Origin: Escherichia coli
Lineage (GTDB): Bacteria > Pseudomonadota > Gammaproteobacteria > Enterobacterales > Enterobacteriaceae
NCBI RefSeq assembly: GCF_024502345.1
Contig: NZ_JALDNN010000001.1
Length of the DNA stretch: 64,000 nucleotides
Strand: one strand, 5' to 3'
In this document: positions 31,425-64,000 of the stretch, piece by piece
Numbering within the stretch: the stretch's first letter is position 1
Layout of the letters: every line of letters starts with the position of its first letter
Position numbers and translations under genes: made by a program
Notes under the pieces: model-generated
What the model saw: only the letters and a program-made list of their open reading frames with translations
Database searches by the model: none
Told to the model about the DNA's origin: nothing

Positions 31425-31521
31425 ATGACCTCCACATATTGCGTGATGAGCATATTATTTCACGCAAATATTTTGCGCAAGTTGATTTGCTTAACGCGCA
31501 ATAAAGAAATGTAATAAACGC

Positions 31522-32214: not shown

Positions 32215-32234
32215 CCCTTACCTCCTCATCAATT

Positions 32235-32256
32235 AGCCACCCAAAGGTGGCTTTTC
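32235..32256 (+). terminator. Rho-independent terminator after cI
   Basis: AGCCACC-CAAA-GGTGGCT stem followed by TTTT. Confidence 0.65.
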
Positions 32257-32649: not shown

Positions 32650-33255
32650 TTACTCTTTCCCCGTTGAGGACACCGGATTGTCAGGTTGACCATACGCCTG
32701 AGTGACAACAACCAGACGATTCAGGGCAGTATCATCCGCCTTTTCCGGTAACAGCCCATGCAGGTATACAAGTCCATCCCAGCGGCTGTTTTTTGGAATT
32801 GGCAGCATCGGCGCTACATAGGCCTGAAAAGCCTGGCCTGTACGTTTAGCTGCCACATGAAAGAGACGGTCAAAGTTGGTAGTGACCAATCGAAGGGCAC
32901 CCTCGCGGCTACGGGCTAAACGTAACAGCGCCGCCTGAGTATCAATAGCGCCCCTACGACGGAACTTTGGCTTAAGGGCTTTTTCCAACGCGCGTCGGAC
33001 GGCTATACGCTGCCCTGGTAAGCGCCGTTCCAGCAAATCTAATGTGCCGTCAAATTGCCCACGCTCGAAAACCTCACGCTCAATTTCTGAAAGTGTTGTT
33101 CCGTTCCTCTGGTAAATTAGTTCTACCAACCCTTTGAAACCAGGTAAACCAGCAGGGTAGGAAATGCCTGCTCCACAGAAGAACACAACGCGCCCTTCCT
33201 CGTGCGCCTGCAAAAGCTCATCAGGAATATCAGGGCCGTTGGTAATGAATTGCAT
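32650..33255 (-). CDS. SIR2-like domain protein (short, 201 aa)
   Basis: VVFFCGAGISYPAGLPGFKGL (Rossmann GAG), VTTNFDRLF, LVYLHGLL match SIR2_2-type motifs as I recall them. Confidence 0.55.
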   Translation of the reverse strand: MQFITNGPDIPDELLQAHEEGRVVFFCGAGISYPAGLPGFKGLVELIYQRNGTTLSEIEREVFERGQFDGTLDLLERRLPGQRIAVRRALEKALKPKFRRRGAIDTQAALLRLARSREGALRLVTTNFDRLFHVAAKRTGQAFQAYVAPMLPIPKNSRWDGLVYLHGLLPEKADDTALNRLVVVTQAYGQPDNPVSSTGKE

Positions 33256-33437
33256 TCCTTTTCCTCCTATCCAATGTGCACGTTCATTCGAGTAAATGAA
33301 GGCAAGGGGTTACATCTTATTATACCGACCGTGCAAATCCGGCTTCCTAGCAAGCTACTTTACTTGCCAACTCATAATGTCCGAACTCCGAACAAAGCGG
33401 ACTGCTAGATTTGATTGCGTTCTAGCTACGCAAAATA

Positions 33438-34661
33438 TCATTTCGAGCCTAAACGAGTACAAGTAACAATCGATTCAACTCTCTCCCACCATGCCTGGTA
33501 GGCTTTACGCTGTTCTTCTAGATAATCACTCTTGTCATAAACTTGCCATACACCTGGCAGTTTATGACCGAGCATTATTTCAGCAATATGAGGCGCAGTA
33601 AGATCAGAAAAGTTTGTTCGTGCTGTTCGTCTCAAATCATGAAGAGACCAATGAGGAAATTGATACCCCAAACGCCGCCATGCGTACTGCATTAAATTGT
33701 AAGGCAGCGACTGCAATGATGTCCGACCAACTGGTTCCCTGCTTCCTTCCTTAGTAAAAAGCATATCGGAACCGTTGTTCATAGAGATAACGTATTTTAT
33801 AAGCTCTTCAACCGGTTCAATAATGGGCCGCTTTAGCGGTTCGCCTGTTATATCCCCTGTCTTATGTCGTTCTGGTGGTACAGTCCATATTTTATTAATG
33901 AAATCAAAATCGTCCACCTTGGCAGTAATTAGCTCTGAACTACGGCAACCAAAATGCAGCAATAGTTTAATGAAGGCCCGGTATTTAGGAACCATTCGAG
34001 AACCATCGATCGCAGCATAAAGGATTTTAATTTCATCATGTGTCAGAAACCGTTTCTTCTGACCTTTACGGATATCCATATCTTTACCCGTGATATCCGA
34101 CAGCGGGCGAGTTTCAATGAGCTTTCTCTTATACGCCCAGACATGGGCCTGCTTTGCGTTAATTAGCAATCGGTCTGCTATTGCTGGAGTCTTAGTGCTA
34201 AGAGGCTCCAGGACTTCTAACCAATCATGCAATGTAGCTGCATCGTGAGGGATATTCCCGATTTTAGAGAACAGGTGCAGCTCAAACGAGCGGAGTATCT
34301 GTTCAGAACCTTTTTTATTTTTTACACAATATGCTTCATACCAAGCACGGATCACAGATTCTACCGTCATGGCTTCAGTAGCTTTACGTTTTTCTGCCAG
34401 CTTGACCAATCGTGGATTGCGGTTTGACTCGAGTTCACCACGAAGACGGATAACTTCTTCTCTGGCCTCTTTTAGTCCAGTTGCCGGGTAAGTTCCGATA
34501 TCAAGACGCTCACCTTTCCCCGCCCACTGATAACGATATTGGAACACTACGCGACCTTTCGGTGATACTCTAACAGACAGACCATCACGATCGGATTTAA
34601 CCAAAACCTTATCACGTTCCTTTCCAAGGACTGAACGCAACCACGCATCAGACAGCGCCAT
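33438..34661 (-). CDS. int: Tyrosine integrase, P4-type
   Basis: 407 aa; N-terminal DUF4102-like arm-binding region (MALSDAWLRSVLGK...GLSVRVSPKGRVVFQYRYQ), C-terminal catalytic region with HDLRRT...LGHK. Confidence 0.9.
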   Translation of the reverse strand: MALSDAWLRSVLGKERDKVLVKSDRDGLSVRVSPKGRVVFQYRYQWAGKGERLDIGTYPATGLKEAREEVIRLRGELESNRNPRLVKLAEKRKATEAMTVESVIRAWYEAYCVKNKKGSEQILRSFELHLFSKIGNIPHDAATLHDWLEVLEPLSTKTPAIADRLLINAKQAHVWAYKRKLIETRPLSDITGKDMDIRKGQKKRFLTHDEIKILYAAIDGSRMVPKYRAFIKLLLHFGCRSSELITAKVDDFDFINKIWTVPPERHKTGDITGEPLKRPIIEPVEELIKYVISMNNGSDMLFTKEGSREPVGRTSLQSLPYNLMQYAWRRLGYQFPHWSLHDLRRTARTNFSDLTAPHIAEIMLGHKLPGVWQVYDKSDYLEEQRKAYQAWWERVESIVTCTRLGSK

Positions 34662-37968: not shown

Positions 37969-38055
37969 GCGAAGGTGGCGGAATTGGTAGACGCGCTAGC
38001 TTCAGGTGTTAGTGTCCTTACGGACGTGGGGGTTCAAGTCCCCCCCCTCGCACCA
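37969..38055 (+). tRNA. leuQ: tRNA-Leu (anticodon CAG), copy 1
   Basis: GCGAAGGTGGCGGAATTGGTAGACGCGCTAGCTTCAGGTG...CTCGCACCA with long variable arm and CCA end; paralog name by position. Confidence 0.9.
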
Positions 38056-38083
38056 AAAACCACGTTGATATTGCTCGCACTGG

Positions 38084-38170
38084 GCGAAGGTGGCGGAATT
38101 GGTAGACGCGCTAGCTTCAGGTGTTAGTGTTCTTACGGACGTGGGGGTTCAAGTCCCCCCCCTCGCACCA
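38084..38170 (+). tRNA. leuP: tRNA-Leu (CAG), copy 2, with one variant base in the variable arm
   Basis: Same as copy 1 except GTGTTCTTACGG instead of GTGTCCTTACGG. Confidence 0.85.
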
Positions 38171-38204
38171 AACGAGGCGATATCAAAAAAAGTAAGATGA
38201 CTGT

Positions 38205-38291
38205 GCGAAGGTGGCGGAATTGGTAGACGCGCTAGCTTCAGGTGTTAGTGTCCTTACGGACGTGGGGGTTCAAGTCCCCCCCCTCGCACCA
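38205..38291 (+). tRNA. leuV: tRNA-Leu (CAG), copy 3
   Basis: Identical to copy 1. Confidence 0.9.
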
Positions 38292-40371: not shown

Positions 40372-41592
40372 TGTAGATTCAATTGGTCAACGCAACAGTT
40401 ATGTGAAAACATGGGGTTGCGGAGGTTTTTTGAATGAGACGAACATTTACAGCAGAGGAAAAAGCCTCTGTTTTTGAACTATGGAAGAACGGAACAGGCT
40501 TCAGTGAAATAGCGAATATCCTGGGTTCAAAACCCGGAACGATCTTCACTATGTTAAGGGATACTGGCGGCATAAAACCCCATGAGCGTAAGCGGGCTGT
40601 AGCTCACCTGACACTGTCTGAGCGCGAGGAGATACGAGCTGGTTTGTCAGCCAAAATGAGCATTCGTGCGATAGCTACTGCGCTGAATCGCAGTCCTTCG
40701 ACGATCTCACGTGAAGTTCAGCGTAATCGGGGCAGACGCTATTACAAAGCTGTTGATGCTAATAACCGAGCCAACAGAATGGCGAAAAGGCCAAAACCGT
40801 GCTTACTGGATCAAAATTTACCATTGCGAAAGCTTGTTCTGGAAAAGCTGGAGATGAAATGGTCTCCAGAGCAAATATCAGGATGGTTAAGGCGAACAAA
40901 ACCACGTCAAAAAACGCTGCGAATATCACCTGAGACAATTTATAAAACGCTGTACTTTCGTAGCCGTGAAGCGCTACACCACCTGAATATACAGCATCTG
41001 CGACGGTCGCATAGCCTTCGCCATGGCAGGCGTCATACCCGCAAAGGCGAAAGAGGTACGATTAACATAGTGAACGGAACACCAATTCACGAACGTTCCC
41101 GAAATATCGATAACAGACGCTCTCTGGGGCATTGGGAGGGCGATTTAGTCTCAGGTACAAAAAACTCTCATATAGCCACACTTGTAGACCGAAAATCACG
41201 TTATACGATCATCCTTAGACTCAGGGGCAAAGATTCTGTCTCAGTAAATCAGGCTCTTACCGACAAATTCCTGAGTTTACCGTCAGAACTCAGAAAATCA
41301 CTGACATGGGACAGAGGAATGGAACTGGCCAGACATCTAGAATTTACTGTCAGCACCGGCGTTAAAGTTTACTTCTGCGATCCTCAGAGTCCTTGGCAGC
41401 GGGGAACAAATGAGAACACAAATGGGCTAATTCGGCAGTACTTTCCTAAAAAGACATGTCTTGCCCAATATACTCAACATGAACTAGATCTGGTTGCTGC
41501 TCAGCTAAACAACAGACCGAGAAAGACACTGAAGTTCAAAACACCGAAAGAGATAATTGAAAGGGGTGTTGCATTGACAGATTGAATCTACA
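40372..41592 (+). mobile_element. IS30 insertion sequence (1221 bp)
   Basis: Terminal inverted repeats TGTAGATTCAATTGGTCAACGCAACAG / ...GTTGCATTGACAGATTGAATCTACA; candidate 2-bp target duplication GC. Confidence 0.9.
40434..41585 (+). CDS. insI: IS30 transposase
   Basis: 383 aa [31 protein letters not shown]...; length and sequence match IS30 Tnp. Confidence 0.92.
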
Positions 41593-49743: not shown

Positions 49744-50658
49744 ATGAGTCGTTCACAAAATTTACGCCACAATGTGATTAACCAGGTCATTGATGATATG
49801 GCGCGGGGTCATATCCCTTCCCCGCTTCCATCGCAAAGTGCGCTGGCGGAAATGTACAACATCAGCCGCACTACAGTGCGTCATATTCTCAGCCACTTAC
49901 GCGAATGCGGCGTCTTAACGCAGGTTGGAAACGACTATGTTATTGCGCGTAAACCTGACCATGATGACGGTTTCGCCTGTACTACCGCTTCAATGAGTGA
50001 ACAAAACAAAGTGTTTGAGCAGGCTTTTTTCACGATGATAAACCAGCGTCAGTTACGCCCTGGGGAAACTTTTTCTGAACTACAACTGGCTCGGGCCGCG
50101 GGTGTCAGCCCGGTGGTTGTAAGAGAATATCTTTTAAAATTCGGCCGTTATAATCTTATTCAAAGCGAAAAGCGCGGCCAGTGGAGCATGAAGCAATTCG
50201 ATCAATCCTACGCCGAGCAGCTGTTTGAGCTACGCGAAATGCTCGAAACACATTCACTTCAGCACTTTCTCAACCTGCCTGATCATGATCCCCGCTGGCT
50301 GCAGGCGAAAACCATGCTCGAACGTCATCGGCTACTGCGTGACAACATAGGCAATAGCTTTCGCATGTTCTCGCAACTTGACAGAGATTTTCACTCCTTA
50401 CTGCTTTCAGCTGCCGACAATATCTTTTTTGATCAATCGCTTGAGATCATCTCAGTCATCTTTCATTTTCACTATCAATGGGACGAAAGCGATCTTAAAC
50501 AGCGCAATATCATTGCCGTCGATGAGCATATGACCATTCTCAGCGCTCTGATTTGCCGCAGTGACCTTGATGCCACCCTTGCGCTCCGTAACCATTTGAA
50601 TTCAGCTAAACAATCAATGATTCGATCCATTAATGAGAACACGCGTTATGCTCATTAA
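49744..50658 (+). CDS. lgoR: GntR-family regulator of L-galactonate utilisation
   Basis: 304 aa, N-terminal GntR HTH. Confidence 0.85.
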   Translation: MSRSQNLRHNVINQVIDDMARGHIPSPLPSQSALAEMYNISRTTVRHILSHLRECGVLTQVGNDYVIARKPDHDDGFACTTASMSEQNKVFEQAFFTMINQRQLRPGETFSELQLARAAGVSPVVVREYLLKFGRYNLIQSEKRGQWSMKQFDQSYAEQLFELREMLETHSLQHFLNLPDHDPRWLQAKTMLERHRLLRDNIGNSFRMFSQLDRDFHSLLLSAADNIFFDQSLEIISVIFHFHYQWDESDLKQRNIIAVDEHMTILSALICRSDLDATLALRNHLNSAKQSMIRSINENTRYAH

Positions 50659-50872
50659 GTACGGATTAAAAACAGCAAACTATTAGCGGGTGCACGGTTT
50701 TATCAAAAGATAAATACCGGGAAATTCCCGCTTACCTATGCTCACAATCAGTCGACTAAAAATGTTTTTGTGAGCGGTAGTAAAGTCCTAAAACTTTAAC
50801 CTGCCGTTAATGTCAACCTTGCGTAATGCACAATTACGTAAACAATTAAAATTATAAATACAGGAGTCCGGC

Positions 50873-52234
50873 GTGGAAAAAGAAAATATCACCCTCGATC
50901 CGCGTTCTTCATTTACTCCATCTTCGTCGGCAGATATTCCCGTGCCACCAGATGGATTAGTTCAACGCAGTACCCGAATTAAACGCATTCAAACCACCGC
51001 CATGTTGTTATTATTTTTTGCGGCGGTAATCAATTATCTCGACCGCAGTTCGCTGTCGGTAGCAAATTTAACGATTCGTGAAGAATTGGGATTAAGTGCC
51101 ACCGAAATCGGCGCTTTGCTCTCCGTGTTTTCACTCGCTTACGGCATTGCGCAACTTCCTTGCGGCCCACTATTGGATCGTAAAGGCCCACGCCTGATGC
51201 TGGGACTGGGGATGTTCTTCTGGTCACTGTTCCAGGCCATGTCTGGCATGGTGCACAGCTTTACGCAGTTCGTGTTGGTGCGTATCGGTATGGGGATTGG
51301 TGAAGCGCCGATGAACCCATGCGGTGTAAAAGTCATTAACGACTGGTTCAACATCAAAGAGCGCGGACGCCCGATGGGCTTCTTCAACGCAGCTTCTACC
51401 ATTGGCGTTGCCGTAAGCCCACCGATTCTGGCGGCGATGATGCTGGTGATGGGCTGGCGCGGGATGTTTATTACCATTGGTGTACTGGGGATTTTTCTCG
51501 CCATCGGCTGGTATATGCTCTATCGCAACCGCGAGCACGTAGAACTGACTGCCGTTGAACAAGCTTATCTCAATGCAGGTAGCGTCAATGCCCGCCGAGA
51601 TCCGCTCAGTTTTGCCGAATGGCGCAGCCTGTTCCGTAACCGCACAATGTGGGGAATGATGCTCGGATTCAGTGGCATCAACTACACTGCGTGGCTGTAT
51701 CTGGCCTGGCTTCCTGGTTACCTGCAAACAGCCTATAACCTGGATTTAAAAAGCACAGGGTTGATGGCGGCTATCCCTTTCCTGTTTGGGGCTGCCGGGA
51801 TGCTGGTCAACGGTTACGTTACTGACTGGCTGGTCAAAGGGGGAATGGCTCCGATTAAAAGCCGTAAGATCTGCATTATTGCCGGGATGTTCTGTTCTGC
51901 CGCCTTTACGCTGATAGTACCACAAGCGACAACATCCATGATGGCGGTTCTGCTGATTGGCATGGCACTGTTCTGTATTCACTTTGCCGGAACATCCTGC
52001 TGGGGCTTGATCCACGTCGCAGTTGCTTCTCGCATGACTGCGTCGGTGGGCAGTATCCAGAACTTTGCCAGCTTCATCTGCGCCTCTTTCGCGCCGATCA
52101 TTACTGGTTTTATTGTTGATACAACCCACTCATTCCGTCTGGCACTAATCATTTGCGGTTGCGTCACCGCAGCGGGAGCACTGGCGTACATCTTCCTGGT
52201 TCGTCAGCCGATCAACGACCCGCGTAAAGATTAA
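50873..52234 (+). CDS. lgoT: MFS L-galactonate transporter
   Basis: 453 aa, 12-TM MFS with typical D-R-x-G-P-R loop. Confidence 0.88.
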   Translation: MEKENITLDPRSSFTPSSSADIPVPPDGLVQRSTRIKRIQTTAMLLLFFAAVINYLDRSSLSVANLTIREELGLSATEIGALLSVFSLAYGIAQLPCGPLLDRKGPRLMLGLGMFFWSLFQAMSGMVHSFTQFVLVRIGMGIGEAPMNPCGVKVINDWFNIKERGRPMGFFNAASTIGVAVSPPILAAMMLVMGWRGMFITIGVLGIFLAIGWYMLYRNREHVELTAVEQAYLNAGSVNARRDPLSFAEWRSLFRNRTMWGMMLGFSGINYTAWLYLAWLPGYLQTAYNLDLKSTGLMAAIPFLFGAAGMLVNGYVTDWLVKGGMAPIKSRKICIIAGMFCSAAFTLIVPQATTSMMAVLLIGMALFCIHFAGTSCWGLIHVAVASRMTASVGSIQNFASFICASFAPIITGFIVDTTHSFRLALIICGCVTAAGALAYIFLVRQPINDPRKD

Positions 52235-52282
52235 ACTCCCTATGCCCGATAACATTTTGCTTATCGGGCATTTTTATGGCGA

Positions 52283-53947
52283 TTAAAACGTTTCCCAGTT
52301 CTCCCCGCTATCTGCCACTGCCATTTTACGCGGCGTAGCTGGCGTCACGGTTTTTACCACAGCCGATGTTTCACGCTGCTGTTGCTGCTGTTGCTGAATC
52401 CGGAACACTGCCACAGCTTCGGTCAGGCGACTGGCCTGCTCTTCCAGCGCGGCGGCGGCAGCGGCAGACTCTTCCACCAGCGCGGCGTTCTGTTGAGTTA
52501 CCCGGTCCATCTCAGCAACCGCTAAGCCAACCTGATCGATACCACGGCTCTGCTCATCAGAAGCAGAAGCTATTTCGCCCATAATGTCCGTCACGCGGGT
52601 CACGGCGCTGACAATCTCCGCCATTGTTTCCCCGGCGCTTTCGACCAGCGTAGAGCCAACATCCACTTTCCCCACCGAGTCTTCAATCAGGCTTTTAATT
52701 TCACGAGCCGCCTGGGCGCTACGCTGGGCCAGATTACGCACTTCTCCCGCAACCACCGCAAAACCACGTCCTTGCTCACCCGCACGCGCAGCCTCAACCG
52801 CCGCGTTCAAAGCCAGAATATTGGTCTGGAAGGCAATGCCGTCAATTACGCTGATAATATCGGCGATTTTCTGCGAACTAGTGGAGATATCGCGCATAGT
52901 CTGCACCACGTTATCCACCACTTTGCCGCCGCGTTGCGCCGTTTCAGAAGCACTTAACGCCAGGTGGCTGGCCTGGCGCGCATTCTCGGCGTTCTGTTTC
53001 ACCGTTGCGGTCAGTTGCTCCATGCTGGCTGCCGTCTCTTCCAGCGAAGCGGCCTGTTGCTCGGTGCGCGAAGAGAGATCGTTATTACCGGTAGCGATTT
53101 CGCTGGCACCGCTATAGATGGCATTGGCCCCGTTGCGCACATCACCGACGGTACGCATCAGTTCTCCCTGCATATGGCGCAAACTCTCTGCCAGTTGCCC
53201 CATCTCATTAGAGCCATCCACCTCAATCGGTTTCACCAGATCGCCGCCTGCAATATGACGGATGCTGTCAATCAGGCGATTCATTGGCGCTACCAGCGAG
53301 GCTTTAATACCGAACCAGACGGCGAAGATGACCGCCAGTACGACGATCATCACGCCCACCAGAATCCACATCGCCTGGCTGTAGGAGGCATTGTTATCGC
53401 TGACGGCGATATCATAGAGCCGATCGTTTTGCTCCATGTAAGCCACATACTGCTTCTCGAAACCGTCTTGATATCCCTGGGTCGGCTGATCAAAGAACTC
53501 GTTGATTTTGCCTGCACCTAACAGTTGGATCAGCTCCGCCAGCGCATTGTGATAAATATCGTAATTACGTTTGCTCTCTGCCGCTGCGGCGGTGCTCTGA
53601 CGCGGGTCACGCGGCAACGCTTCGTAATCCACCCAGTTTTTTTCCGCCTGTTTCAACGAAATACTGGCACTCTGCATCAGCTCAGCAACGGTTGAACCGC
53701 TACCAATATTATTCTGATCCATCATGTAGCGGATACCCGCGCGGTTGAGGGTGTTACGCGTCTGCAACAACGCGACCCAGCTGCCATTCAGCGTGGATTG
53801 CTGCTGGCGAATGGTTTGTAAAACAGTGAAATTTTCTTTGTCATTCTTTAAGGCATTAAAGAACAGACCGCCTGATGTCAGTTGTAAAAGGCCAAAAACG
53901 GCCAAAACCAGCAGTAAGCTGGTCACGATCTTGATACGTTTTAACAT
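52283..53947 (-). CDS. tsr: Serine chemoreceptor Tsr (methyl-accepting chemotaxis protein I)
   Basis: 554 aa [19 protein letters not shown]...; HAMP and MCP signalling domains, C-terminal NWETF pentapeptide. Confidence 0.93.
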
Positions 53948-54065
53948 GGTTTCTCTTTCCTGTGGACCGATGCAAGATTTTCGGCCTGGAAAGCAAAAAC
54001 TTTATGAAAAGGTGTAACCCGCCATCCATGGAAAAACCAGGCGCTGGTTATCAGATACTAAAAAG

Positions 54066-54512
54066 TTATTCATTATCGCCCGGGATGTCTTCTTGTCGGG
54101 AATTGCCCAGAGCAATAAATTCCTCTAACAGATGGGTTAACTGTTGCATTTTCTCGGCAGTAAACTGAGCTTCAATCTGCCGATAGGCTTCTTCAATCTG
54201 TGTCTGAGCGCGGTTATACAGCGCCTGCCCCTCTTTGGTCAGCGAGATATAGAGCTTCCGCTGATCATTGATCGGCTTTAATCGCAACACTAAACCGTCG
54301 CGTTCCATCCGCGTGAGGATCCCGGTCAGGCTTGGGCGCAAAATGCAGGCGCGATACGCCAGATCGTGAAAATCCATTGATGGGCTTTCCGCCAGAATAC
54401 GCACGATGCGCCACTGTTGCTCAGTCAAATTATGCCGTTTAACGATTGGGCGAAAATAACTCATCGCCGCTTCTCGCGCCTGGAGCAACGCAATGGTTAG
54501 TGAGTCGTGCAT
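54066..54512 (-). CDS. hpaR: MarR-family repressor of homoprotocatechuate degradation
   Basis: MHDSLTIALLQAREAAMSYFRPIVKRHNLTEQQWRIVRIL... MarR HTH; divergent from hpaG. Confidence 0.8.
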   Translation of the reverse strand: MHDSLTIALLQAREAAMSYFRPIVKRHNLTEQQWRIVRILAESPSMDFHDLAYRACILRPSLTGILTRMERDGLVLRLKPINDQRKLYISLTKEGQALYNRAQTQIEEAYRQIEAQFTAEKMQQLTHLLEEFIALGNSRQEDIPGDNE

Positions 54513-54783
54513 TATCTTTCCCCTGAAAAATTCAAAATCATTAATATAGAAACAATTAATCATCACGTTACCGGGACTGCGCTGCCCCTGCAATTCCTGA
54601 TTTTATCAAAATTGATGATATTTTATTAACTTACTGATATTTAATATTTTATTATCTTTATATGTAAATAGTTTGTTAATTAGATCACATTTATATCACT
54701 TACTTTTGCCAAACTACGCAATCGGGAATAAAAGTAATCATTAACATATTAATGATTAAGATGATCGAATCCGAGGAGTGGTA

Positions 54784-56073
54784 ATGAAAGGCACTATCTT
54801 CGCCGTAGCGTTGAACCATCGCAGCCAACTTGATGCCTGGCAGGAAGCGTTCCAGCAATCTCCCTACAAAGCCCCGCCTAAAACTGCGGTCTGGTTTATT
54901 AAACCGCGCAATACGGTGATTGGTTGCGGTGAACCGATTCCCTTTCCACAGGGTGAAAAGGTACTGAGCGGTGCGACAGTTGCGCTGATTGTGGGAAAAA
55001 CGGCGACGAAAGTACGTGAAGAAGATGCGGCAGAGTACATCGCCGGATATGCGCTGGCTAACGACGTCAGCCTGCCGGAAGAGAGCTTTTACCGCCCGGC
55101 AATCAAAGCAAAATGTCGTGATGGATTCTGCCCCATTGGCGAAACCGTGGCTCTCAGCAATGTCGATAATCTGACTATCTATACCGAGATCAACGGGCGT
55201 CCTGCCGATCACTGGAATACCGCCGATTTACAACGTAACGCCGCACAGCTGCTGAGCGCCCTGAGCGAATTCGCCACGCTGAACCCAGGCGACGCCATTT
55301 TGCTTGGCACACCACAAACCCGCGTGGACATTCAACCCGGCGATCGCGTTCGTGTTCTCGCAGAAGGTTTCCCGCCGCTGGAAAATCCGGTAGTGGACGA
55401 ACGTGAAGTGACCACGCGTAAAACCTTCCCAACGCAGCCACACCCGCACGGCACGCTGTTTGCCCTCGGCCTGAACTACGCCGACCACGCCAGTGAACTG
55501 GAATTTAAGCCACCGGAAGAGCCGTTGGTGTTTCTGAAAGCGCCGAATACCCTCACGGGCGATAACCAGACCTCCGTGCGCCCGAACAACATCGAGTACA
55601 TGCACTACGAAGCGGAGCTGGTGGTAGTTATTGGCAAGCAGGCTCGTAACGTCAGCGAAGCCGATGCCATGGATTATGTCGCGGGCTACACCGTGTGTAA
55701 CGACTACGCCATTCGCGACTATCTGGAAAACTACTACCGCCCTAACCTGCGGGTCAAAAGCCGCGACGGACTGACGCCGATGCTTTCAACCATCGTGCCG
55801 AAAGAGGCGATCCCGGACCCGCATAATCTGACCCTTCGCACCTTCGTCAACGGCGAGTTACGCCAGCAAGGCACCACCGCCGATCTGATCTTCAGCGTGC
55901 CCTTCCTGATCGCCTACTTAAGCGAATTTATGACCCTGAATCCGGGCGACATGATCGCCACCGGCACACCAAAAGGCTTATCTGACGTGGTGCCTGGCGA
56001 TGAAGTAGTGGTGGAAGTAGAAGGCGTGGGCCGCCTGGTGAACCGAATTGTGAGTGAGGAAACAGCGAAATGA
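54784..56073 (+). CDS. hpaG: Bifunctional OPET decarboxylase / HHDD isomerase (FAH family)
   Basis: ~429 aa, two tandem FAH-like halves. Confidence 0.85.
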   Translation: MKGTIFAVALNHRSQLDAWQEAFQQSPYKAPPKTAVWFIKPRNTVIGCGEPIPFPQGEKVLSGATVALIVGKTATKVREEDAAEYIAGYALANDVSLPEESFYRPAIKAKCRDGFCPIGETVALSNVDNLTIYTEINGRPADHWNTADLQRNAAQLLSALSEFATLNPGDAILLGTPQTRVDIQPGDRVRVLAEGFPPLENPVVDEREVTTRKTFPTQPHPHGTLFALGLNYADHASELEFKPPEEPLVFLKAPNTLTGDNQTSVRPNNIEYMHYEAELVVVIGKQARNVSEADAMDYVAGYTVCNDYAIRDYLENYYRPNLRVKSRDGLTPMLSTIVPKEAIPDPHNLTLRTFVNGELRQQGTTADLIFSVPFLIAYLSEFMTLNPGDMIATGTPKGLSDVVPGDEVVVEVEGVGRLVNRIVSEETAK

Positions 56074-57536
56074 AAAAAGTAAATCATTGGATCAACGGCA
56101 AAAATGTTGCAGGTAACGACTACTTCCAGACCACCAATCCGGCAACCGGTGAAGTGCTGGCGGATGTGGCCTCTGGCGGTGAAGCGGAGATCAATCAGGC
56201 GGTAGCGGCAGCGAAAGAGGCGTTCCCGAAATGGGCCAATCTGCCGATGAAAGAGCGTGCGCGCCTGATGCGCCGTCTGGGCGATCTGATCGACCAGAAC
56301 GTGCCTGAGATCGCCGCGATGGAAACCGCGGACACGGGCCTGCCGATCCATCAGACCAAAAACATGTTGATCCCACGCGCTTCTCACAACTTTGAATTTT
56401 TCGCGGAAGTCTGCCAGCAGATGAACGGCAAGACCTATCCGGTTGACGACAAGATGCTCAACTACACGCTGGTGCAGCCGGTAGGCGTTTGTGCACTGGT
56501 GTCGCCGTGGAACGTGCCGTTTATGACCGCCACATGGAAGGTCGCGCCGTGTCTTGCGCTGGGCAATACCGCGGTGCTGAAGATGTCGGAACTCTCCCCG
56601 CTGACCGCTGACCGCCTGGGTGAGCTGGCGCTGGAAGCCGGTATTCCGGCGGGCGTGCTGAACGTGGTACAGGGCTACGGCGCAACCGCAGGGGATGCGC
56701 TGGTTCGTCATCATGACGTACGTGCCGTGTCGTTCACCGGCGGTACGGCCACCGGGCGCAACATCATGAAAAACGCCGGGCTGAAAAAATACTCCATGGA
56801 ACTGGGCGGTAAATCGCCGGTGCTGATTTTTGAAGATGCCGATATTGAACGCGCGCTGGACGCTGCCCTGTTCACCATCTTCTCAATCAACGGCGAACGC
56901 TGCACCGCCGGTTCGCGCATTTTTATTCAACAGAGCATCTATCCAGAATTCGTTAAACGCTTTGCCGAACGCGCCAACCGTCTGCGCGTGGGCGATCCGA
57001 CCGATCCGAATACCCAGGTTGGGGCGCTTATCAGCCAGCAGCACTGGGAAAAAGTCTCCGGCTATATCCGTCTCGGCATTGAAGAAGGCGCCACCCTGCT
57101 GGCGGGCGGCCCGGATAAACCGTCTGACCTGCCTGCACACCTGAAAGGCGGCAACTTCCTGCGCCCAACGGTGCTGGCGGACGTAGATAACCGTATGCGC
57201 GTTGCCCAGGAAGAGATTTTCGGGCCGGTCGCCTGCCTGCTGCCGTTTAAAGATGAAGCCGAAGGCTTACGCCTGGCAAACGACGTGGAGTACGGCCTCG
57301 CGTCGTACATCTGGACGCAGGATGTCAGCAAAGTGTTACGCCTGGCGCGTGGCATTGAAGCAGGCATGGTGTTCGTCAACACCCAGAACGTGCGTGACCT
57401 GCGCCAGCCATTTGGCGGCGTAAAAGCCTCCGGCACCGGGCGTGAAGGCGGTGAGTACAGCTTCGAAGTGTTCGCGGAAATGAAGAACGTCTGCATTTCC
57501 ATGGGCGACCATCCAATTCCGAAATGGGGAGTCTGA
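56070..57536 (+). CDS. hpaE: 5-carboxymethyl-2-hydroxymuconate semialdehyde dehydrogenase
   Basis: 488 aa aldehyde dehydrogenase with catalytic Cys (GERCTAGSR). Confidence 0.88.
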   Translation: MKKVNHWINGKNVAGNDYFQTTNPATGEVLADVASGGEAEINQAVAAAKEAFPKWANLPMKERARLMRRLGDLIDQNVPEIAAMETADTGLPIHQTKNMLIPRASHNFEFFAEVCQQMNGKTYPVDDKMLNYTLVQPVGVCALVSPWNVPFMTATWKVAPCLALGNTAVLKMSELSPLTADRLGELALEAGIPAGVLNVVQGYGATAGDALVRHHDVRAVSFTGGTATGRNIMKNAGLKKYSMELGGKSPVLIFEDADIERALDAALFTIFSINGERCTAGSRIFIQQSIYPEFVKRFAERANRLRVGDPTDPNTQVGALISQQHWEKVSGYIRLGIEEGATLLAGGPDKPSDLPAHLKGGNFLRPTVLADVDNRMRVAQEEIFGPVACLLPFKDEAEGLRLANDVEYGLASYIWTQDVSKVLRLARGIEAGMVFVNTQNVRDLRQPFGGVKASGTGREGGEYSFEVFAEMKNVCISMGDHPIPKWGV

Positions 57537-57537
57537 T

Positions 57538-58389
57538 ATGGGTAAGTTAGCGTTAGCCGCCAAGATCACGCACGTACCGTCGATGTATCTCTCTGAACTG
57601 CCAGGGAAAAACCACGGTTGCCGCCAGGGCGCGATCGACGGGCATAAAGAGATCAGCAAGCGTTGCCGGGAAATGGGCGTCGATACCATTATCGTTTTCG
57701 ACACCCACTGGCTGGTCAACAGTGCTTATCACATCAACTGTGCAGACCATTTTGAAGGCGTCTACACCAGTAACGAACTGCCGCATTTTATTCGTGACAT
57801 GACCTACAACTACGAGGGCAACCCGGAGTTGGGGCAGCTTATTGCCGATGAAGCCTTAAAGCTCGGCGTGCGGGCGAAAGCGCACAACATTCCCAGCCTC
57901 AAACTGGAGTACGGCACGCTGGTACCGATGCGCTACATGAATGAAGACAAGCGCTTCAAAGTGGTCTCCATTTCGGCTTTCTGCACGGTTCACGATTTTG
58001 CCGACAGCCGCAAGCTGGGCGAAGCGATTCTGAAAGCGATCGAACAGTACGACGGCACCGTGGCGGTCCTTGCCAGCGGTTCGTTATCGCACCGCTTTAT
58101 TGACGATCAGCGTGCAGAAGAAGGGATGAACAGCTACACCCGCGAGTTCGACCGTCAGATGGACGAGCGCGTGGTGAAGTTGTGGCGCGAAGGCCAGTTC
58201 AAAGAGTTCTGCAATATGCTGCCGGAGTACGCCGACTACTGCTACGGCGAAGGCAATATGCACGACACGGTGATGCTGCTGGGGATGCTCGGCTGGGATA
58301 AATACGACGGCAAGGTGGAGTTTATCACCGAGCTATTCCCAAGCTCTGGCACCGGTCAGGTTAACGCTGTTTTCCCGCTTCCCGCGTAA
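57538..58389 (+). CDS. hpaD: Homoprotocatechuate (3,4-dihydroxyphenylacetate) 2,3-dioxygenase
   Basis: 283 aa extradiol dioxygenase-like. Confidence 0.85.
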   Translation: MGKLALAAKITHVPSMYLSELPGKNHGCRQGAIDGHKEISKRCREMGVDTIIVFDTHWLVNSAYHINCADHFEGVYTSNELPHFIRDMTYNYEGNPELGQLIADEALKLGVRAKAHNIPSLKLEYGTLVPMRYMNEDKRFKVVSISAFCTVHDFADSRKLGEAILKAIEQYDGTVAVLASGSLSHRFIDDQRAEEGMNSYTREFDRQMDERVVKLWREGQFKEFCNMLPEYADYCYGEGNMHDTVMLLGMLGWDKYDGKVEFITELFPSSGTGQVNAVFPLPA

Positions 58390-58398
58390 GGACGTTTT

Positions 58399-58779
58399 AT
58401 GCCGCACTTTATCGTTGAATGCAGTGACAACATCCGCGAAGAAGCCGACCTGCCGGGGTTGTTCGCCAAAGTGAATCCGACGCTGGCAGCCACGGGTATT
58501 TTTCCGCTGGCGGGTATTCGCAGCCGCGTGCATTGGGTCGATACCTGGCAGATGGCCGACGGGCAGCGTGATTATGCCTTCGTGCATATGACGTTGAAAA
58601 TCGGCGCAGGTCGCAGCCTGGAAAGCCGTCAGCAGGCGGGTGAAATGCTGTTTGAACTGATTAAAACGCACTTCGCCGCCCTGATGGAGAGCCGCCTGCT
58701 GGCGTTGTCGTTTGAGATTGAAGAGCTGCATCCGACGCTGAATTTTAAACAAAACAACGTGCACGCATTGTTTAAGTAG
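58399..58779 (+). CDS. hpaF: 5-carboxymethyl-2-hydroxymuconate isomerase
   Basis: 126 aa [18 protein letters not shown]... Confidence 0.85.
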
Positions 58780-58789
58780 CGCGCAGATT

Positions 58790-58875
58790 GCCCGGTGGCG
58801 CTGCGCTTACCGGGCCTACAAAACCCCAAACCGTACACCGTAGGCCGGATAAGGCGCAGCCGCATCCGGCAATGC
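58790..58875. repeat. REP element
   Basis: GCCGGATGCGGCTGCGCCTTATCCGGCCTACG units. Confidence 0.6.
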
Positions 58876-58889
58876 CACAGGATATCGCT

Positions 58890-59693
58890 ATGTTCGATAA
58901 ACATACCCACACCCTGATCGCCCAGCGTCTGGATCAGGCAGAAAAACAGCGCGAACAGATCCGCGCGATCTCACTGGATTACCCGGAGATCACCATCGAA
59001 GACGCTTACGCGGTGCAGCGCGAATGGGTTCGCCTGAAAATCGCCGAAGGTCGCACGCTGAAAGGCCACAAAATCGGCCTGACCTCGAAAGCGATGCAGG
59101 CAAGCTCGCAGATCAGCGAACCGGATTACGGCGCGCTGCTGGATGACATGTTCTTCCACGATGGCAGCGATATCCCGACCGATCGCTTTATCGTGCCGCG
59201 CATTGAAGTGGAGCTGGCTTTCGTGCTGGCAAAACCGCTGCGTGGGCCAAACTGCACGCTGTTCGACGTCTACAACGCCACGGACTACGTGATCCCGGCG
59301 CTGGAGCTGATCGACGCTCGCTGCCACAACATCGATCCGGAAACCCAGCGCCCGCGCAAAGTGTTCGACACCATTTCTGATAACGCCGCCAACGCCGGGG
59401 TGATCCTCGGTGGTCGTCAGATCAAACCAGACGAACTGGATCTGCGTTGGATCTCCGCCCTGATGTATCGCAATGGCGTGATTGAAGAAACCGGCGTCGC
59501 CGCTGGCGTGCTGAATCATCCGGCAAACGGCGTGGCCTGGCTGGCGAACAAACTCGCACCGTATGACGTACAACTGGAAGCCGGGCAAATCATTCTCGGT
59601 GGTTCGTTCACCCGCCCGGTTCCGGCGCGTAAGGGCGACACCTTCCACGTCGATTACGGCAACATGGGTTCCATTAGCTGCCGCTTTGTTTAA
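58890..59693 (+). CDS. hpaH: 2-oxo-hept-4-ene-1,7-dioate hydratase
   Basis: 267 aa from [19 protein letters not shown]... Confidence 0.85.
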
Positions 59694-59703
59694 GGAGAGA
59701 ACG

Positions 59704-60492
59704 ATGGAAAACAGCTTTAAAGCGGCGCTGAAAGCAGGCCGTCCGCAGATCGGATTATGGCTGGGGCTGAGTAGCAGCTACAGCGCAGAGTTACTGGCCG
59801 GAGCAGGATTCGACTGGTTGTTGATCGACGGTGAGCACGCGCCGAATAACGTGCAAACCGTGCTCACCCAGCTACAGGCGATTGCGCCCTACCCCAGCCA
59901 GCCGGTAGTACGTCCGTCGTGGAACGATCCGGTGCAAATCAAACAACTGCTGGACGTCGGCACACAAACCTTGCTGGTGCCGATGGTACAAAACGCTGAC
60001 GAAGCCCGTGAAGCGGTACGCGCCACCCGTTATCCCCCCGCCGGTATTCGCGGTGTGGGCAGTGCGCTGGCCCGCGCCTCGCGCTGGAATCGTATTCCTG
60101 ATTACCTGCAAAAAGCCAACGATCAAATGTGCGTGCTGGTGCAGATCGAAACGCGTGAGGCAATGAAGAACTTACCGCAGATTCTGGACGTGGAAGGAGT
60201 CGACGGCGTGTTTATCGGCCCGGCGGATCTGAGCGCCGATATGGGTTATGCCGGTAATCCGCAGCACCCGGAAGTACAGGCCGCCATTGAGCAGGCGATC
60301 GTGCAGATCCGCGAAGCGGGCAAAGCGCCGGGGATCCTGATCGCCAATGAGCAACTGGCAAAACGCTATCTGGAACTGGGCGCGCTGTTTGTCGCCGTCG
60401 GCGTTGACACCACCCTGCTCGCCCGCGCCGCCGAAGCGCTGGCAGCACGGTTTGGCGCGCAGGCTACAGCGATTAAGCCCGGCGTGTATTAA
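59704..60492 (+). CDS. hpaI: 2,4-dihydroxyhept-2-ene-1,7-dioate aldolase
   Basis: 262 aa from [20 protein letters not shown]... Confidence 0.85.
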
Positions 60493-60499
60493 TGTCGAA

Positions 60500-60640
60500 T
60501 GCGTTGCGCTTATCCGGCCTACACGCGCACCAAATCGTAGGCCTGATAAGGCGTTACGCCGCATCCGGCAAAAAGCCGTACCAAATCGCGGACCGGATAA
60601 GGCGTTTACGCCGCATCCGCCATAAACCTTGTCGTACCCT
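60500..60640. repeat. BIME/REP elements
   Basis: Three GCCGGATAAGGCG/GCATCCGGC-type units. Confidence 0.6.
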
Positions 60641-60666
60641 ACAAAAATCCCATTAGAGGAAGAAAA

Positions 60667-62043
60667 ATGAGCGACACCTCACCTGCCATACCGGAGAGTA
60701 TCGATCCGGCGAATCAGCATAAAGCGCTGACTGCCGGACAACAGGCGGTTATTAAGAAGCTATTTCGCCGCCTGATCGTCTTTCTGTTCGTGCTGTTTAT
60801 CTTCTCGTTCCTTGATCGCATCAACATTGGTTTTGCCGGACTAACTATGGGACGCGACCTCGGTCTGAGCGCCACCATGTTTGGCCTCGCTACCACCCTG
60901 TTCTACGCCGCTTATGTCATCTTCGGCATTCCCAGCAACATTATGCTGAGTATTGTCGGTGCGCGGCGCTGGATCGCCACCATCATGGTGCTTTGGGGCA
61001 TCGCCTCTACTGCCACCATGTTTGCCACTGGCCCCACCAGCTTATACATACTGCGTATACTGGTTGGCATTACCGAAGCCGGCTTTCTGCCTGGCATTCT
61101 GCTCTATTTAACCTTCTGGTTTCCGGCCTATTTCCGCGCCCGTGCCAACGCCTTGTTTATGGTGGCAATGCCGGTAACGACAGCGTTGGGATCGATCGTT
61201 TCCGGCTACATTTTGTCGCTGGATGGCGTAATGGCATTAAAAGGCTGGCAGTGGCTGTTTTTGCTGGAAGGCTTCCCGTCGGTATTACTCGGCGTCATGG
61301 TATGGTTCTGGCTTGATGACTCACCGGACAAAGCTAACTGGCTGACGAAAGAAGACAAAAAATGCCTGCAAGAGATGATGGATAATGATCGTCTGACGCT
61401 GGTTCAGCCAGAGGGAGCCATCAGCCACCACGCTATGCAACAACGCAGCATGTGGCGGGAGATCTTCACTCCGGTGGTGATGATGTATACCCTGGCGTAT
61501 TTCTGCCTGACCAACACACTTAGTGCGATCAGCATCTGGACACCGCAGATCCTGCAAAGCTTCAATCAGGGCAGCAGTAATATCACCATCGGTCTGCTGG
61601 CCGCCGTACCGCAGATTTGTACCATTCTCGGGATGGTCTACTGGAGCCGTCACTCAGATCGCTGCCAGGAACGAAGGCATCACACCGCCCTTCCTTATTT
61701 GTTCGCTGCCGCTGGTTGGTTACTGGCTTCGGCAACTGATCACAACATGATCCAGATGCTGGGGATCATTATGGCTTCGACCGGATCATTCAGCGCAATG
61801 GCGATTTTCTGGACAACACCGGATCAGTCCATCAGCCTGCGGGCACGAGCGATCGGTATTGCGGTGATCAACGCCACTGGCAACATTGGTTCAGCATTAA
61901 GTCCGTTTATGATCGGCTGGTTGAAAGATCTGACCGGCAGCTTTAACAGTGGATTGTGGTTTGTTGCCGCGCTGCTGGTGATTGGTGCAGGGATTATCTG
62001 GGCAATTCCAATGCAGTCCTCCCGTCCGCGAGCGACCCCGTAA
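60667..62043 (+). CDS. hpaX: 4-hydroxyphenylacetate permease (MFS)
   Basis: 458 aa, 12 predicted TM helices. Confidence 0.85.
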   Translation: MSDTSPAIPESIDPANQHKALTAGQQAVIKKLFRRLIVFLFVLFIFSFLDRINIGFAGLTMGRDLGLSATMFGLATTLFYAAYVIFGIPSNIMLSIVGARRWIATIMVLWGIASTATMFATGPTSLYILRILVGITEAGFLPGILLYLTFWFPAYFRARANALFMVAMPVTTALGSIVSGYILSLDGVMALKGWQWLFLLEGFPSVLLGVMVWFWLDDSPDKANWLTKEDKKCLQEMMDNDRLTLVQPEGAISHHAMQQRSMWREIFTPVVMMYTLAYFCLTNTLSAISIWTPQILQSFNQGSSNITIGLLAAVPQICTILGMVYWSRHSDRCQERRHHTALPYLFAAAGWLLASATDHNMIQMLGIIMASTGSFSAMAIFWTTPDQSISLRARAIGIAVINATGNIGSALSPFMIGWLKDLTGSFNSGLWFVAALLVIGAGIIWAIPMQSSRPRATP

Positions 62044-62052
62044 GGAACGACG

Positions 62053-62943
62053 ATGTGTGACCGTCAGATTGCCAATATTGATATCAGCAAAGAGTACGAT
62101 GAAAGCCTGGGCACGGACGATGTGCATTATCAGTCGTTCGCCCGCATGGCGGCATTTTTTGGCCGCCATATGCTGCCACATCGCCACGAACAGTACTTTC
62201 AGATGCATTTCCTCAATAGCGGACAGATTGAGCTACAGCTTGACGATCATCGCTACTCGGTGGAAGCGCCCCTGTTTGTCCTGACGCCGCCGTCAGTACC
62301 TCATGCGTTTATTACGGAGTCTGACGCCGACGGTCATGTGTTGACGGTACGGGAAGATCTGATCTGGCCCCTGCTGGAAGTTCTTTATCCAGGCACTCGG
62401 GAAACCTTCGGCCTGCCGGGGATTTGCCTGTCACTGGCAGATAAACCCGACGAACTGGCGGCGCTGGAACACTATTGGCAACTGATAGAGCGGGAATCGG
62501 TGGAACAACTGCCTGGACGGGAACACACCCTGACGTTACTGGCACAGGCAGTGTTCACCCTACTGCTGCGTAACGCAAAACTCGACGATCATGCCACCAG
62601 CGGAATGCGCGGAGAATTAAAACTGTTCCAGCGTTTTAATATGCTGATTGAAAGCCATTTTCATCAGCACTGGACAGTACCGGATTACGCTAACGAACTG
62701 CATATCACCGAATCACGCCTCACGGACATCTGCCGCCGCTTTGCCAACCGTCCGCCAAAACGGTTGATTTTCGACAGGCAGCTGCGAGAAGCCAAACGGC
62801 TGCTGCTGTTTTCTGATAACGCCGTGAACAATATTGCCTGGCAACTCGGTTTTAAGGATCCGGCTTATTTTGCGCGCTTTTTTAATCGCTTAGTCGGTTG
62901 CTCGCCCAGTGCTTATCGTGCCAAAAAAGTACCTGTGACGTGA
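62053..62943 (+). CDS. hpaA: AraC/XylS-family activator of hpaBC
   Basis: 296 aa; C-terminal AraC HTH. Confidence 0.85.
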   Translation: MCDRQIANIDISKEYDESLGTDDVHYQSFARMAAFFGRHMLPHRHEQYFQMHFLNSGQIELQLDDHRYSVEAPLFVLTPPSVPHAFITESDADGHVLTVREDLIWPLLEVLYPGTRETFGLPGICLSLADKPDELAALEHYWQLIERESVEQLPGREHTLTLLAQAVFTLLLRNAKLDDHATSGMRGELKLFQRFNMLIESHFHQHWTVPDYANELHITESRLTDICRRFANRPPKRLIFDRQLREAKRLLLFSDNAVNNIAWQLGFKDPAYFARFFNRLVGCSPSAYRAKKVPVT

Positions 62944-63193
62944 AAATCCCTTAGCCTTAACGGGAAACCAGGCACCACCTGCTATTCCCCTTTCTCCGCC
63001 TGGAGCAAGGGGATTTAGTAACGTTAAAAATAGCTAAAAGCGACCTCGATCACAAAACCGTACCCGACCTGAAAAGTACCAGCCATTGTCCCAAAAGTCT
63101 CTTCCCGTAATCGCCCCTGCAAGCTTCAATTGAATAACAAAAACAACACACAAAATTAACAATCGTATTCCGATTAATACTGTAGAGGTCGAC

Positions 63194-64000
63194 ATGAAAC
63201 CAGAAGATTTCCGCGCCAGTACCCAACGTCCGTTCACCGGGGAAGAGTATCTGAAAAGCCTGCAGGATGGTCGCGAGATCTATATCTATGGCGAGCGAGT
63301 GAAAGACGTCACCACTCATCCGGCATTTCGTAATGCGGCAGCGTCTGTTGCCCAACTGTACGACGCGCTACACAAACCGGAGATGCAGGACTCTCTGTGC
63401 TGGAACACCGACACCGGTAGCGGCGGCTATACCCATAAATTCTTCCGCGTGGCGAAAAGTGCCGACGACCTGCGCCAGCAACGCGACGCCATCGCTGAGT
63501 GGTCACGCCTGAGCTATGGCTGGATGGGCCGCACCCCAGACTACAAAGCCGCTTTCGGTTGCGCACTGGGCGCGAATCCGGGCTTTTACGGTCAGTTCGA
63601 GCAGAACGCCCGTAACTGGTATACCCGTATTCAGGAAACTGGCCTCTACTTTAACCACGCGATTGTTAACCCACCGATCGATCGTCATTTGCCGACCGAT
63701 AAAGTAAAAGACGTTTACATCAAGCTGGAAAAAGAGACTGACGCCGGGATTATCGTCAGCGGTGCGAAAGTGGTTGCCACCAACTCGGCGCTGACTCACT
63801 ACAACATGATTGGCTTCGGCTCGGCACAAGTAATGGGCGAAAACCCGGACTTCGCACTGATGTTCGTTGCGCCAATGGATGCCGATGGCGTGAAATTAAT
63901 CTCCCGCGCCTCTTATGAGATGGTCGCGGGTGCTACCGGCTCGCCGTACGACTACCCGCTCTCCAGCCGCTTCGATGAGAACGATGCAATCCTGGTGATG
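63194..64000 (+). CDS. hpaB: 4-hydroxyphenylacetate 3-monooxygenase oxygenase component, 5' partial (runs off the window)
   Basis: MKPEDFRASTQRPFTGEEYLKSLQDGREIYIYGERVKDVTTHPAFRNAA...; open to window end. Confidence 0.85.
   Translation, partial: MKPEDFRASTQRPFTGEEYLKSLQDGREIYIYGERVKDVTTHPAFRNAAASVAQLYDALHKPEMQDSLCWNTDTGSGGYTHKFFRVAKSADDLRQQRDAIAEWSRLSYGWMGRTPDYKAAFGCALGANPGFYGQFEQNARNWYTRIQETGLYFNHAIVNPPIDRHLPTDKVKDVYIKLEKETDAGIIVSGAKVVATNSALTHYNMIGFGSAQVMGENPDFALMFVAPMDADGVKLISRASYEMVAGATGSPYDYPLSSRFDENDAILVM

Follow-up and report, generated by a model that had tools for sequence, protein, structure and literature searches.

Closest described systems

The best described relative of the locus is the hpa cluster of E. 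coli W, with the gene order hpaRGEDFHIXABC, which we take to be GenBank Z37980 (Prieto et al. 1996). The locus lies at the right end of the 64,000-nucleotide stretch of DNA analysed here (the window), and has the same genes, order, orientation, intergenic lengths, number of REP elements and tsr flank as E. coli W. Nucleotide identity between the two is 98.2–98.3% (98.3% over the 18 kb in which they are collinear), and they differ in a nucleotide divergence of about 1.7% that is spread as a mosaic and in that the window ends within hpaB. The hpc/hpa cluster of E. coli C and the clusters of E. coli B (REL606, BL21) share both the site and the gene set; the solved HpcE and HpcH structures of the E. 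coli C system are full-length matches to the window HpaG (1GTT and 1I7O; E=4e-291) and HpaI (2V5J and 4B5X; E=1e-169 to 1e-170). Unlike the window, E. coli B lacks one REP from each of the two spacers that contain these elements. Growth on 3- and 4-hydroxyphenylacetate is a trait of strains B, C and W but not of K-12 (PMC7201708, PMC7180172), and the cluster is present in B and absent from K-12 (PMC5379014, PMC3446290).

Two more distant systems are informative. Pseudocitrobacter vendiensis and P. faecalis have the order tsr...hpaR-hpaGEDFHI-hpaX-hpaA-hpaBC-btsT-yjiX-yjiA with REP arrays in the same two spacers, and their hpaG–hpaI genes are 90–96% identical to those of the window at the nucleotide level. 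However, they have about 3.4 kb of extra DNA between tsr and hpaR, and hpaR, hpaX and hpaA are only 81–82% identical and tsr 79%. The hpa-meta cluster of Yersinia pseudotuberculosis resembles the window in its pathway, its HpaR repressor and its TTAA-N4-TTAA operators, but lacks hpaA, has hpaG split into hpaG1 and hpaG2, and forms a single operon (PMC7180172).

We are confident that the locus is the classical E. coli hpa cluster, undamaged over the part that lies in the window and in its customary position next to tsr, presumably with btsT on the other side. It is already known, an ordinary member of the well-studied 3-/4-hydroxyphenylacetate catabolic system, and knowledge of the hpa pathway is unchanged by the present results.

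Gene content and integrity of the cluster

Gene coordinates were transferred from the E. coli W annotation and the reading frames were then checked. Ten of the eleven hpa genes lie wholly or partly inside the window in canonical order; the 3′ portion of hpaB and all of hpaC are beyond its end. A single leftwards-transcribed gene, hpaR (54066..54512, minus strand), encodes a MarR-family repressor of the hpaGEDFHI operon (TIGR02337 equivalog; score 200 bits, cut-off 121). The remaining genes are all transcribed rightwards (plus strand). The first six encode the bifunctional OPET decarboxylase / HHDD isomerase HpaG (54784..56073; NF011750, 977 bits against 811), the 5-carboxymethyl-2-hydroxymuconate semialdehyde dehydrogenase HpaE (56070..57536; TIGR02299, 740 against 638), the 3,4-dihydroxyphenylacetate (homoprotocatechuate) 2,3-dioxygenase HpaD (57538..58389; TIGR02298, 547 against 316), the 5-carboxymethyl-2-hydroxymuconate isomerase HpaF (58399..58779; NF011605, 259 against 215), the 2-oxo-hept-4-ene-1,7-dioate hydratase HpaH (58890..59693; TIGR02312, 464 against 351) and the 4-hydroxy-2-oxoheptanedioate aldolase HpaI (59704..60492; TIGR02311, 433 against 369). 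These are followed by genes for the MFS 4-hydroxyphenylacetate (4-HPA) permease HpaX (60667..62043; TIGR02332, 890 against 615), the AraC/XylS-family activator of hpaBC, HpaA (62053..62943; TIGR02297, 392 against 275), and HpaB (63194..64000), the oxygenase component of 4-HPA 3-monooxygenase. Only the first 807 of 1563 nt of hpaB are present (269 of 520 codons), and the identification is supported by a match to Pfam HpaB_N (1.8e-83) and by the alignment to E. coli W. Each of the nine complete products exceeds its curated NCBIfam equivalog cut-off, with E-values of 1e-60 to 0. The first-pass annotation, made from the sequence alone, had listed hpaR and hpaGEDFHI-hpaX-hpaA-hpaB (partial) at 54066–64000, and this order and content are borne out by the NCBIfam and Pfam searches and by the alignment to W.

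The source genome is unusual in that all complete E. coli genomes are less than 99% identical to it over the stretches searched, and elsewhere the window contains a degraded prophage and an IS-type transposase; these features could suggest that the cluster is a decaying, non-functional remnant. We regard this as highly improbable, as all ten hpa frames have canonical starts, no internal stops and 0–4 amino acid changes each relative to W, and the putative HpaR operator in front of hpaG is a perfect palindrome. HpaR and the 269 residues of HpaB have no amino acid differences from W, and hpaF is 100% identical at the nucleotide level. Across the hpa genes, 175 nucleotide differences from W result in only 14 amino acid changes, a sign of purifying selection.

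Putative HpaR operators and proposed pathway

The divergent hpaR/hpaG control region (54513..54783) contains two inverted repeats. The first is a perfect palindrome, TAATCATTAA-CATA-TTAATGATTA (54735–54758; 10+10 nt with a 4-nt spacer), that is situated 26 nt upstream of hpaG and has no second exact occurrence in the window; the second is an imperfect palindrome at 54537–54563. The HpaR sites of E. coli W and Yersinia have the form TTAA-N4-TTAA (PMC7180172), as does the palindrome in the hpaR–hpaG region, and the two repeats are likely to act as HpaR operators. Consensus scans for promoters and terminators across 53900–64000 gave counts no higher than in shuffled sequence and were therefore set aside, and an Rfam scan of 50000–64000 gave no matches.

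The mechanism described below is that of the E. coli W and C system, which has been characterised and whose proteins are at least 99% identical to those of the window; by this analogy the source genome would be expected to regulate the cluster in the same way and to grow on 4-HPA. HpaX would import 4-HPA, and HpaA with bound 4-HPA would activate hpaBC; HpaB together with the flavin reductase HpaC would then hydroxylate 4-HPA to 3,4-dihydroxyphenylacetate. This product would lift HpaR repression at the palindromic operator before hpaG, such that the ring could be opened by HpaD (the homoprotocatechuate meta-cleavage pathway) and the ring-opened product converted by HpaE, HpaF, HpaG, HpaH and HpaI to pyruvate and succinic semialdehyde. 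The source genome could probably use 3- and 4-hydroxyphenylacetate, gut-derived breakdown products of tyrosine and phenylalanine, as carbon sources. The hpaBC enzyme is also a biocatalyst in wide use.

REP elements

Five REP elements, imperfect palindromes of about 30–35 nt, are located in two intergenic spacers; they match the enterobacterial REP consensus and vary in copy number among strains. Two are in inverted, BIME-like orientation between hpaF and hpaH (58790–58819 and 58840–58871), and three are between hpaI and hpaX (60494–60522, 60537–60570 and 60588–60622). A strict REP pattern is found four times in the window, with zero expected, one match being at 60592–60621. The first-pass annotation had recognised both arrays, with bounds (58790..58875 and 60500..60640) slightly different from the 58790–58871 and 60494–60622 given here. 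Alignment of the spacers with those of W, B and a further E. coli shows that the hpaF–hpaH array is identical in W and has one copy only in B, and that the hpaI–hpaX array has three copies in W and two in B. Beyond E. coli, the arrays are common only to Pseudocitrobacter and one cryptic Escherichia.

A block shared with Pseudocitrobacter

Sliding comparison with P. vendiensis reveals a high-identity block from the middle of hpaG to the end of hpaI (55200..60500) that includes both REP arrays, with 91–99% identity inside and 68–85% outside. Four-fold-site identities to Pseudocitrobacter, calculated with the E. coli W sequence and not that of the window, are 76–86% for hpaG–hpaI and 48–49% for tsr, hpaX, hpaA and hpaC. 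Because hpaG–hpaI are 91–99% identical and the flanks are about 80% identical, the similarity of this block points to an exchange between Escherichia and Pseudocitrobacter.

The tsr flank and the left junction

The conserved left flank is formed by tsr (52283..53947, minus strand; NF011615, 1220 bits against 947), encoding a serine chemoreceptor with 99% amino acid identity to K-12 Tsr; the gene is annotated in W, B, C and K-12. The tsr start codon and the hpaR stop codon are 118 nt apart, so hpaR directly follows tsr, as first noted. Between them lies a predicted sigma-28 (FliA) type promoter (53978..54004, minus strand), TAAAGTTT-N11-GCCGAAAA, with one mismatch to the consensus; it is the sole match within the window, where 0.07 would be expected. 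What is known of class 3 flagellar genes is the ground for assigning the site to tsr, of which it is presumably the promoter.

Alignments place the left junction of the strain-variable segment at 54009, 4 nt upstream of the −35 element of this promoter, and the segment continues past the window end (54009..64000). The start at 54066 in the first-pass annotation is correct for the end of hpaR, but the variable segment begins further to the left. The E. coli W counterpart of this segment measures 11,380 bp (about 11.4 kb). Of the tsr–btsT site, the window contains the left side (tsr) and the right junction lies beyond its end; btsT is to the right of the hpa cluster in the nearest relatives as well as in W, B and C. 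We rejected a clean right junction at the promoter of btsT, as the CCGCTCACCGCCATTC and CCGCTCAACCGCAAAA variants there vary independently of whether hpa is present.

Distribution among E. coli and alleles of the site

In K-12 MG1655 a 377-bp spacer separates btsT from tsr, and the hpa genes are absent from the site. The genomes of W, B and C, each examined directly, have tsr-hpaR-hpaGEDFHI-hpaX-hpaA-hpaBC-btsT. This comparison of four genomes agrees with the first-pass statement that K-12 lacks the cluster and that B, C and W carry it, and the one finding named as speaking against it, the same cluster at this site in K-12, was not encountered in MG1655. The best identity to the window of any complete E. 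coli genome is 98.3–98.9%, with MG1655 included in the collection searched; the window is thus not from K-12, as proposed at the outset. The cluster here is mostly a strain marker for a non-K-12 E. coli-like genome.

Among 5426 complete E. coli genomes, 2020 (about 37%) have the hpa cluster and 2752 (51%) the K-12-type spacer; in another 363 (7%) the site is occupied by a third type of filler, the O157 type, which is unrelated to the other two, is roughly 1 kb long and contains an uncharacterised 180-aa ORF. The K-12 filler is 88 bp and unrelated to the hpa segment for which it stands in; compared with all hpa loci retrieved, it has no similarity to any of them, and therefore the hpa and K-12 states are not joined by a deletion scar. 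K-12-type spacers diverge from one another by up to 6%, indicating that the hpa and K-12-type alleles are both old.

Mobility and direction of change

The first-pass annotation had described the cluster as a catabolic island next to tsr. Its composition is atypical and its distribution patchy, as in mobile islands: the GC content of 54009–64000 is 54.7%, slightly above the 49.0% of the remaining window sequence, the hpa genes have GC3 values of 0.57–0.72, the cluster is GC-richer than its flanks, and only the 37% of genomes noted above contain it. It also adjoins the highly variable immigration-control region (PMC5379014). Thus the description holds as to strain variability and GC content. It fails as to mobility, as the usual hallmarks of a mobile element are lacking. 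There is no integrase, transposase or conjugation gene in 54009–64000, where all large ORFs are hpa genes, and the nearest integrase (33438–34661) is part of a prophage. No tRNA genes are found within 15 kb of the segment, the closest being 16 kb away. The segment ends in E. coli W share no direct repeat of at least 8 nt and no direct or inverted repeat of at least 9 nt; the one shared 8-mer is inverted, and matches of this length often arise by chance. In K-12 the site is not a clean, empty target but contains the unrelated 88-bp filler. Moreover, the same site is occupied by hpa in other genera: tsr-hpaR...hpaC-btsT-yjiX-yjiA synteny is seen in Pseudocitrobacter, Enterobacter, Lelliottia and Citrobacter, and in Klebsiella and Raoultella hpaC adjoins btsT. 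The occurrence of the tsr-hpa-btsT arrangement in several other enterobacterial genera indicates that the site is old. A true mobile genomic island, inserted beside tsr by site-specific recombination or transposition, is already contradicted by these results and is very improbable; the hpa cluster is a strain-variable segment.

The K-12-type spacer more likely represents loss or replacement of hpa, and the presence or absence of the cluster may have passed between lineages through homologous recombination in the flanks. The opposite direction, in which the empty spacer is ancestral and hpa was gained by homologous replacement from a genus that already had tsr-hpa-btsT, is a doubtful but serious alternative. 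The hpa genes exceed the flanking genes in GC and GC3, which is consistent with import, as is the 91–99% identity of hpaG–hpaI to P. vendiensis (locus GC 55.8%) with flanks at about 79–82%. Distribution is patchy even within phylogroup A (K-12 without, B and C with), and hpa is found in only one non-coli Escherichia representative; the representatives of other named Escherichia species do not occur among HpaH relatives, a pattern compatible with import into E. coli. However, hpaR, hpaX, hpaA and hpaC show the same degree of divergence from Pseudocitrobacter as tsr does (48–57% four-fold-site identity), so the whole cluster was not recently imported from that genus, and the junction is shared by a cryptic Escherichia (92.5% identity) whose tsr–hpaR spacer is equally long (121 nt so measured).

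We favour, with some reserve, a somewhat broader reading in two linked parts. The tsr–btsT spacer would be a multi-allele replacement site with at least three mutually unrelated fillers (hpa, the 88-bp K-12 and the ~1-kb O157 sequences), bounded on one side by the sigma-28 promoter of tsr and on the other by the btsT promoter, which is under CRP/BtsR control. Within the hpa allele, the 5.3-kb hpaG–hpaI block with its REPs would stem from a relatively recent exchange between the genera Escherichia and Pseudocitrobacter. The three alleles of this promoter-bounded spacer and the meta-operon block shared with Pseudocitrobacter would then illustrate, in a modest way, how homologous recombination can maintain, remove and patch accessory catabolic clusters that lack mobility genes.

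The closest backbone to the 41.6–54.0 kb part of the window is O157:H7-like (99.27%), and such genomes carry the O157-type filler and not hpa.

Organization of the hpa genes

The hpa cluster for 4-hydroxyphenylacetate (4-HPA) catabolism is an already known feature. In the window it lies beyond tsr (52283–53947, minus strand) in the order hpaR (minus strand), hpaG-hpaE-hpaD-hpaF-hpaH-hpaI, hpaX-hpaA and the start of hpaB, which is cut by the window end. ORF listing and an NCBIfam scan, together with a Pfam HpaB_N match to the partial hpaB product (1.8e-83), confirm the gene set and order of the first-pass annotation. All complete hpa products exceed their curated NCBIfam equivalog cut-offs (HpaG, 977 bits vs 811; HpaE, 740 vs 638; HpaX, 890 vs 615; HpaR, 200 vs 121), and HpaG (1GTT/1I7O) and HpaI (2V5J, 4B5X) have full-length matches to solved E. 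coli structures. Precise gene borders are transferred from the annotation of E. coli W, with which the window is collinear over 18 kb at 98.3% identity. All ten hpa genes in the window have intact reading frames, and the 175 nucleotide differences from W give 14 amino-acid changes, a low ratio of the kind expected under purifying selection.

The pathway steps follow published work on the W and C strains of E. coli and are assigned here solely by sequence identity. HpaX would import the substrate, HpaBC would hydroxylate 4-HPA to homoprotocatechuate, HpaD would cleave the ring, and HpaE, HpaF, HpaG, HpaH and HpaI would yield pyruvate and succinic semialdehyde; HpaA is predicted to activate hpaBC and HpaR to repress hpaGEDFHI. 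A perfect palindrome, TAATCATTAA-CATA-TTAATGATTA (54735–54758), is located 26 nt before hpaG and an imperfect one (54537–54563) before hpaR; both are candidate HpaR sites, fitting the reported form TTAA-N4-TTAA (PMC7180172).

REP elements occupy two spacers (58790–58871 and 60494–60622), essentially where they had been placed at first pass: an inverted pair between hpaF and hpaH (58790–58819 and 58840–58871) and three copies between hpaI and hpaX (60494–60522, 60537–60570 and 60588–60622). The strict REP consensus occurs four times in the window (e.g. 60592–60621) and not at all in shuffled sequences. E. coli W has the same number of REPs, whereas each of these spacers is short by one in E. 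coli B.

Alternative sequences between tsr and btsT

The variable segment begins at 54009, 4 bases upstream of the -35 element of a sigma-28-type promoter (TAAAGTTT-N11-GCCGAAAA; 53978–54004, minus strand), the sole match in the window, which we take to be the tsr promoter. At this position W has 11,380 bp and K-12 an unrelated 88-bp filler that matches none of the hpa loci compared. A third allele, in O157:H7-type genomes, is ~1 kb of AT-rich sequence in the tsr-btsT spacer (e.g. L005, the NZ_CP032793.1 locus, 1829–2891) with one 180-aa ORF that has no Pfam match. Among 5426 complete E. coli genomes, 2020 have the hpa cluster, 2752 the K-12-type spacer and 363, mostly O157:H7, the O157-type filler, leaving ~290 by difference. 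All three alleles retain the tsr promoter and, before btsT, a TGTGAT-N4-ATCACA box. A variant of the btsT promoter sequence segregates independently of hpa, and the right border is therefore not sharp. E. coli W also has a ~125-bp insertion directly before the btsT start codon (~19525–19660 of the fetched W locus), absent in K-12, that looks like an ERIC/IRU element.

The expectation that K-12 lacks the cluster and that B, C and W carry it is borne out by genome comparison and literature. The MG1655 site consists of btsT, a 377-bp spacer and tsr, whereas tsr-hpaR-hpaGEDFHI-hpaX-hpaA-hpaBC-btsT is present in the E. coli W, E. coli C and E. coli B derivative genomes checked (one B derivative). 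Growth on 3- and 4-HPA is reported for B, C and W but not K-12 (PMC7201708, PMC7180172), and of B and K-12 only B has the cluster (PMC5379014, PMC3446290). The non-K-12 background also holds, since MG1655 is in the collection and yet the top identity of the window to any of the 5426 genomes is only 98.3–98.9%. The differences form a mosaic, a pattern typical of recombination. None of the 5426 RefSeq genomes reaches 99% identity over core stretches, so the lineage has no representative in this collection; the closest backbone is O157:H7-like (99.27% over 41.6–54.0 kb).

Gene order in other genera

The term island, used in the first-pass annotation, is favored by composition (GC 54.7% in the segment vs 49.0% in the rest of the window, with GC3 up to 0.72), but no integrase or transposase was found within the segment by ORF listing and NCBIfam, the closest tRNA genes are 16 kb away, and no direct repeats of at least 8 nt link the two segment ends in E. 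coli W.

The site is old, as judged from gene order shared with other genera and a cryptic Escherichia. A scan for HpaH relatives in one genome per bacterial species, followed by gene-order analysis of those loci, finds relatives in many Enterobacteriaceae. The order tsr-hpaR...hpaC-btsT-yjiX-yjiA recurs in Pseudocitrobacter vendiensis, P. faecalis, several Enterobacter, Lelliottia and a Citrobacter, with opgB additionally upstream in three of these loci, and Klebsiella and Raoultella have hpaC-btsT-yjiX-yjiA. The tsr-hpa junction and the tsr-hpaR spacer length are also the same in a cryptic Escherichia that carries the label E. coli SCPM-O-B-8794 and shares 92.5% identity with the window. For K-12, loss or replacement is the preferred reading, a direction that we infer and that is likewise suggested in PMC7201708. 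The Salmonella enterica subsp. arizonae layout differs: hpaC and hpaB lie upstream of hpaR in inverted orientation, and neither tsr nor btsT was found in the fetched locus.

Within the cluster, the window is 91–99% identical to P. vendiensis over ~55200–60500 and 68–85% outside this block. Four-fold-site identities, measured on E. coli W and not on the window, are 76–86% for hpaG-hpaI, 48% for tsr and hpaX, 49% for hpaA and hpaC, and 63% for btsT. The REP arrays of both spacers and their flanks are common only to E. coli, the cryptic Escherichia and Pseudocitrobacter among the loci compared. This pattern suggests that Escherichia and Pseudocitrobacter exchanged the meta-cleavage block, in one direction or the other; a literature search for such an exchange found no paper.

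Other features of the window

A degraded lambdoid prophage (21120–34661) adjoins yjjG and contains a macro-domain ORF, a truncated large terminase (287 aa), Nu1, lysis genes, antiterminator Q, a CI-like repressor and a tyrosine integrase (33438–34661). At the position of a complete dsr1 defence gene (1275 aa) in an O157-like relative, the window has a SIR2_2 fragment of 201 aa (32650–33255). At 37969–38291, tRNA-Leu(CAG) is present in three tandem copies, compared with a single annotated copy at this place in one O157-like relative. The transposase encoded at 40434–41585 (383 aa; HTH_38 and rve domains) looks like an IS30 family member and is within a ~1.2 kb insertion absent from all six related genomes compared.
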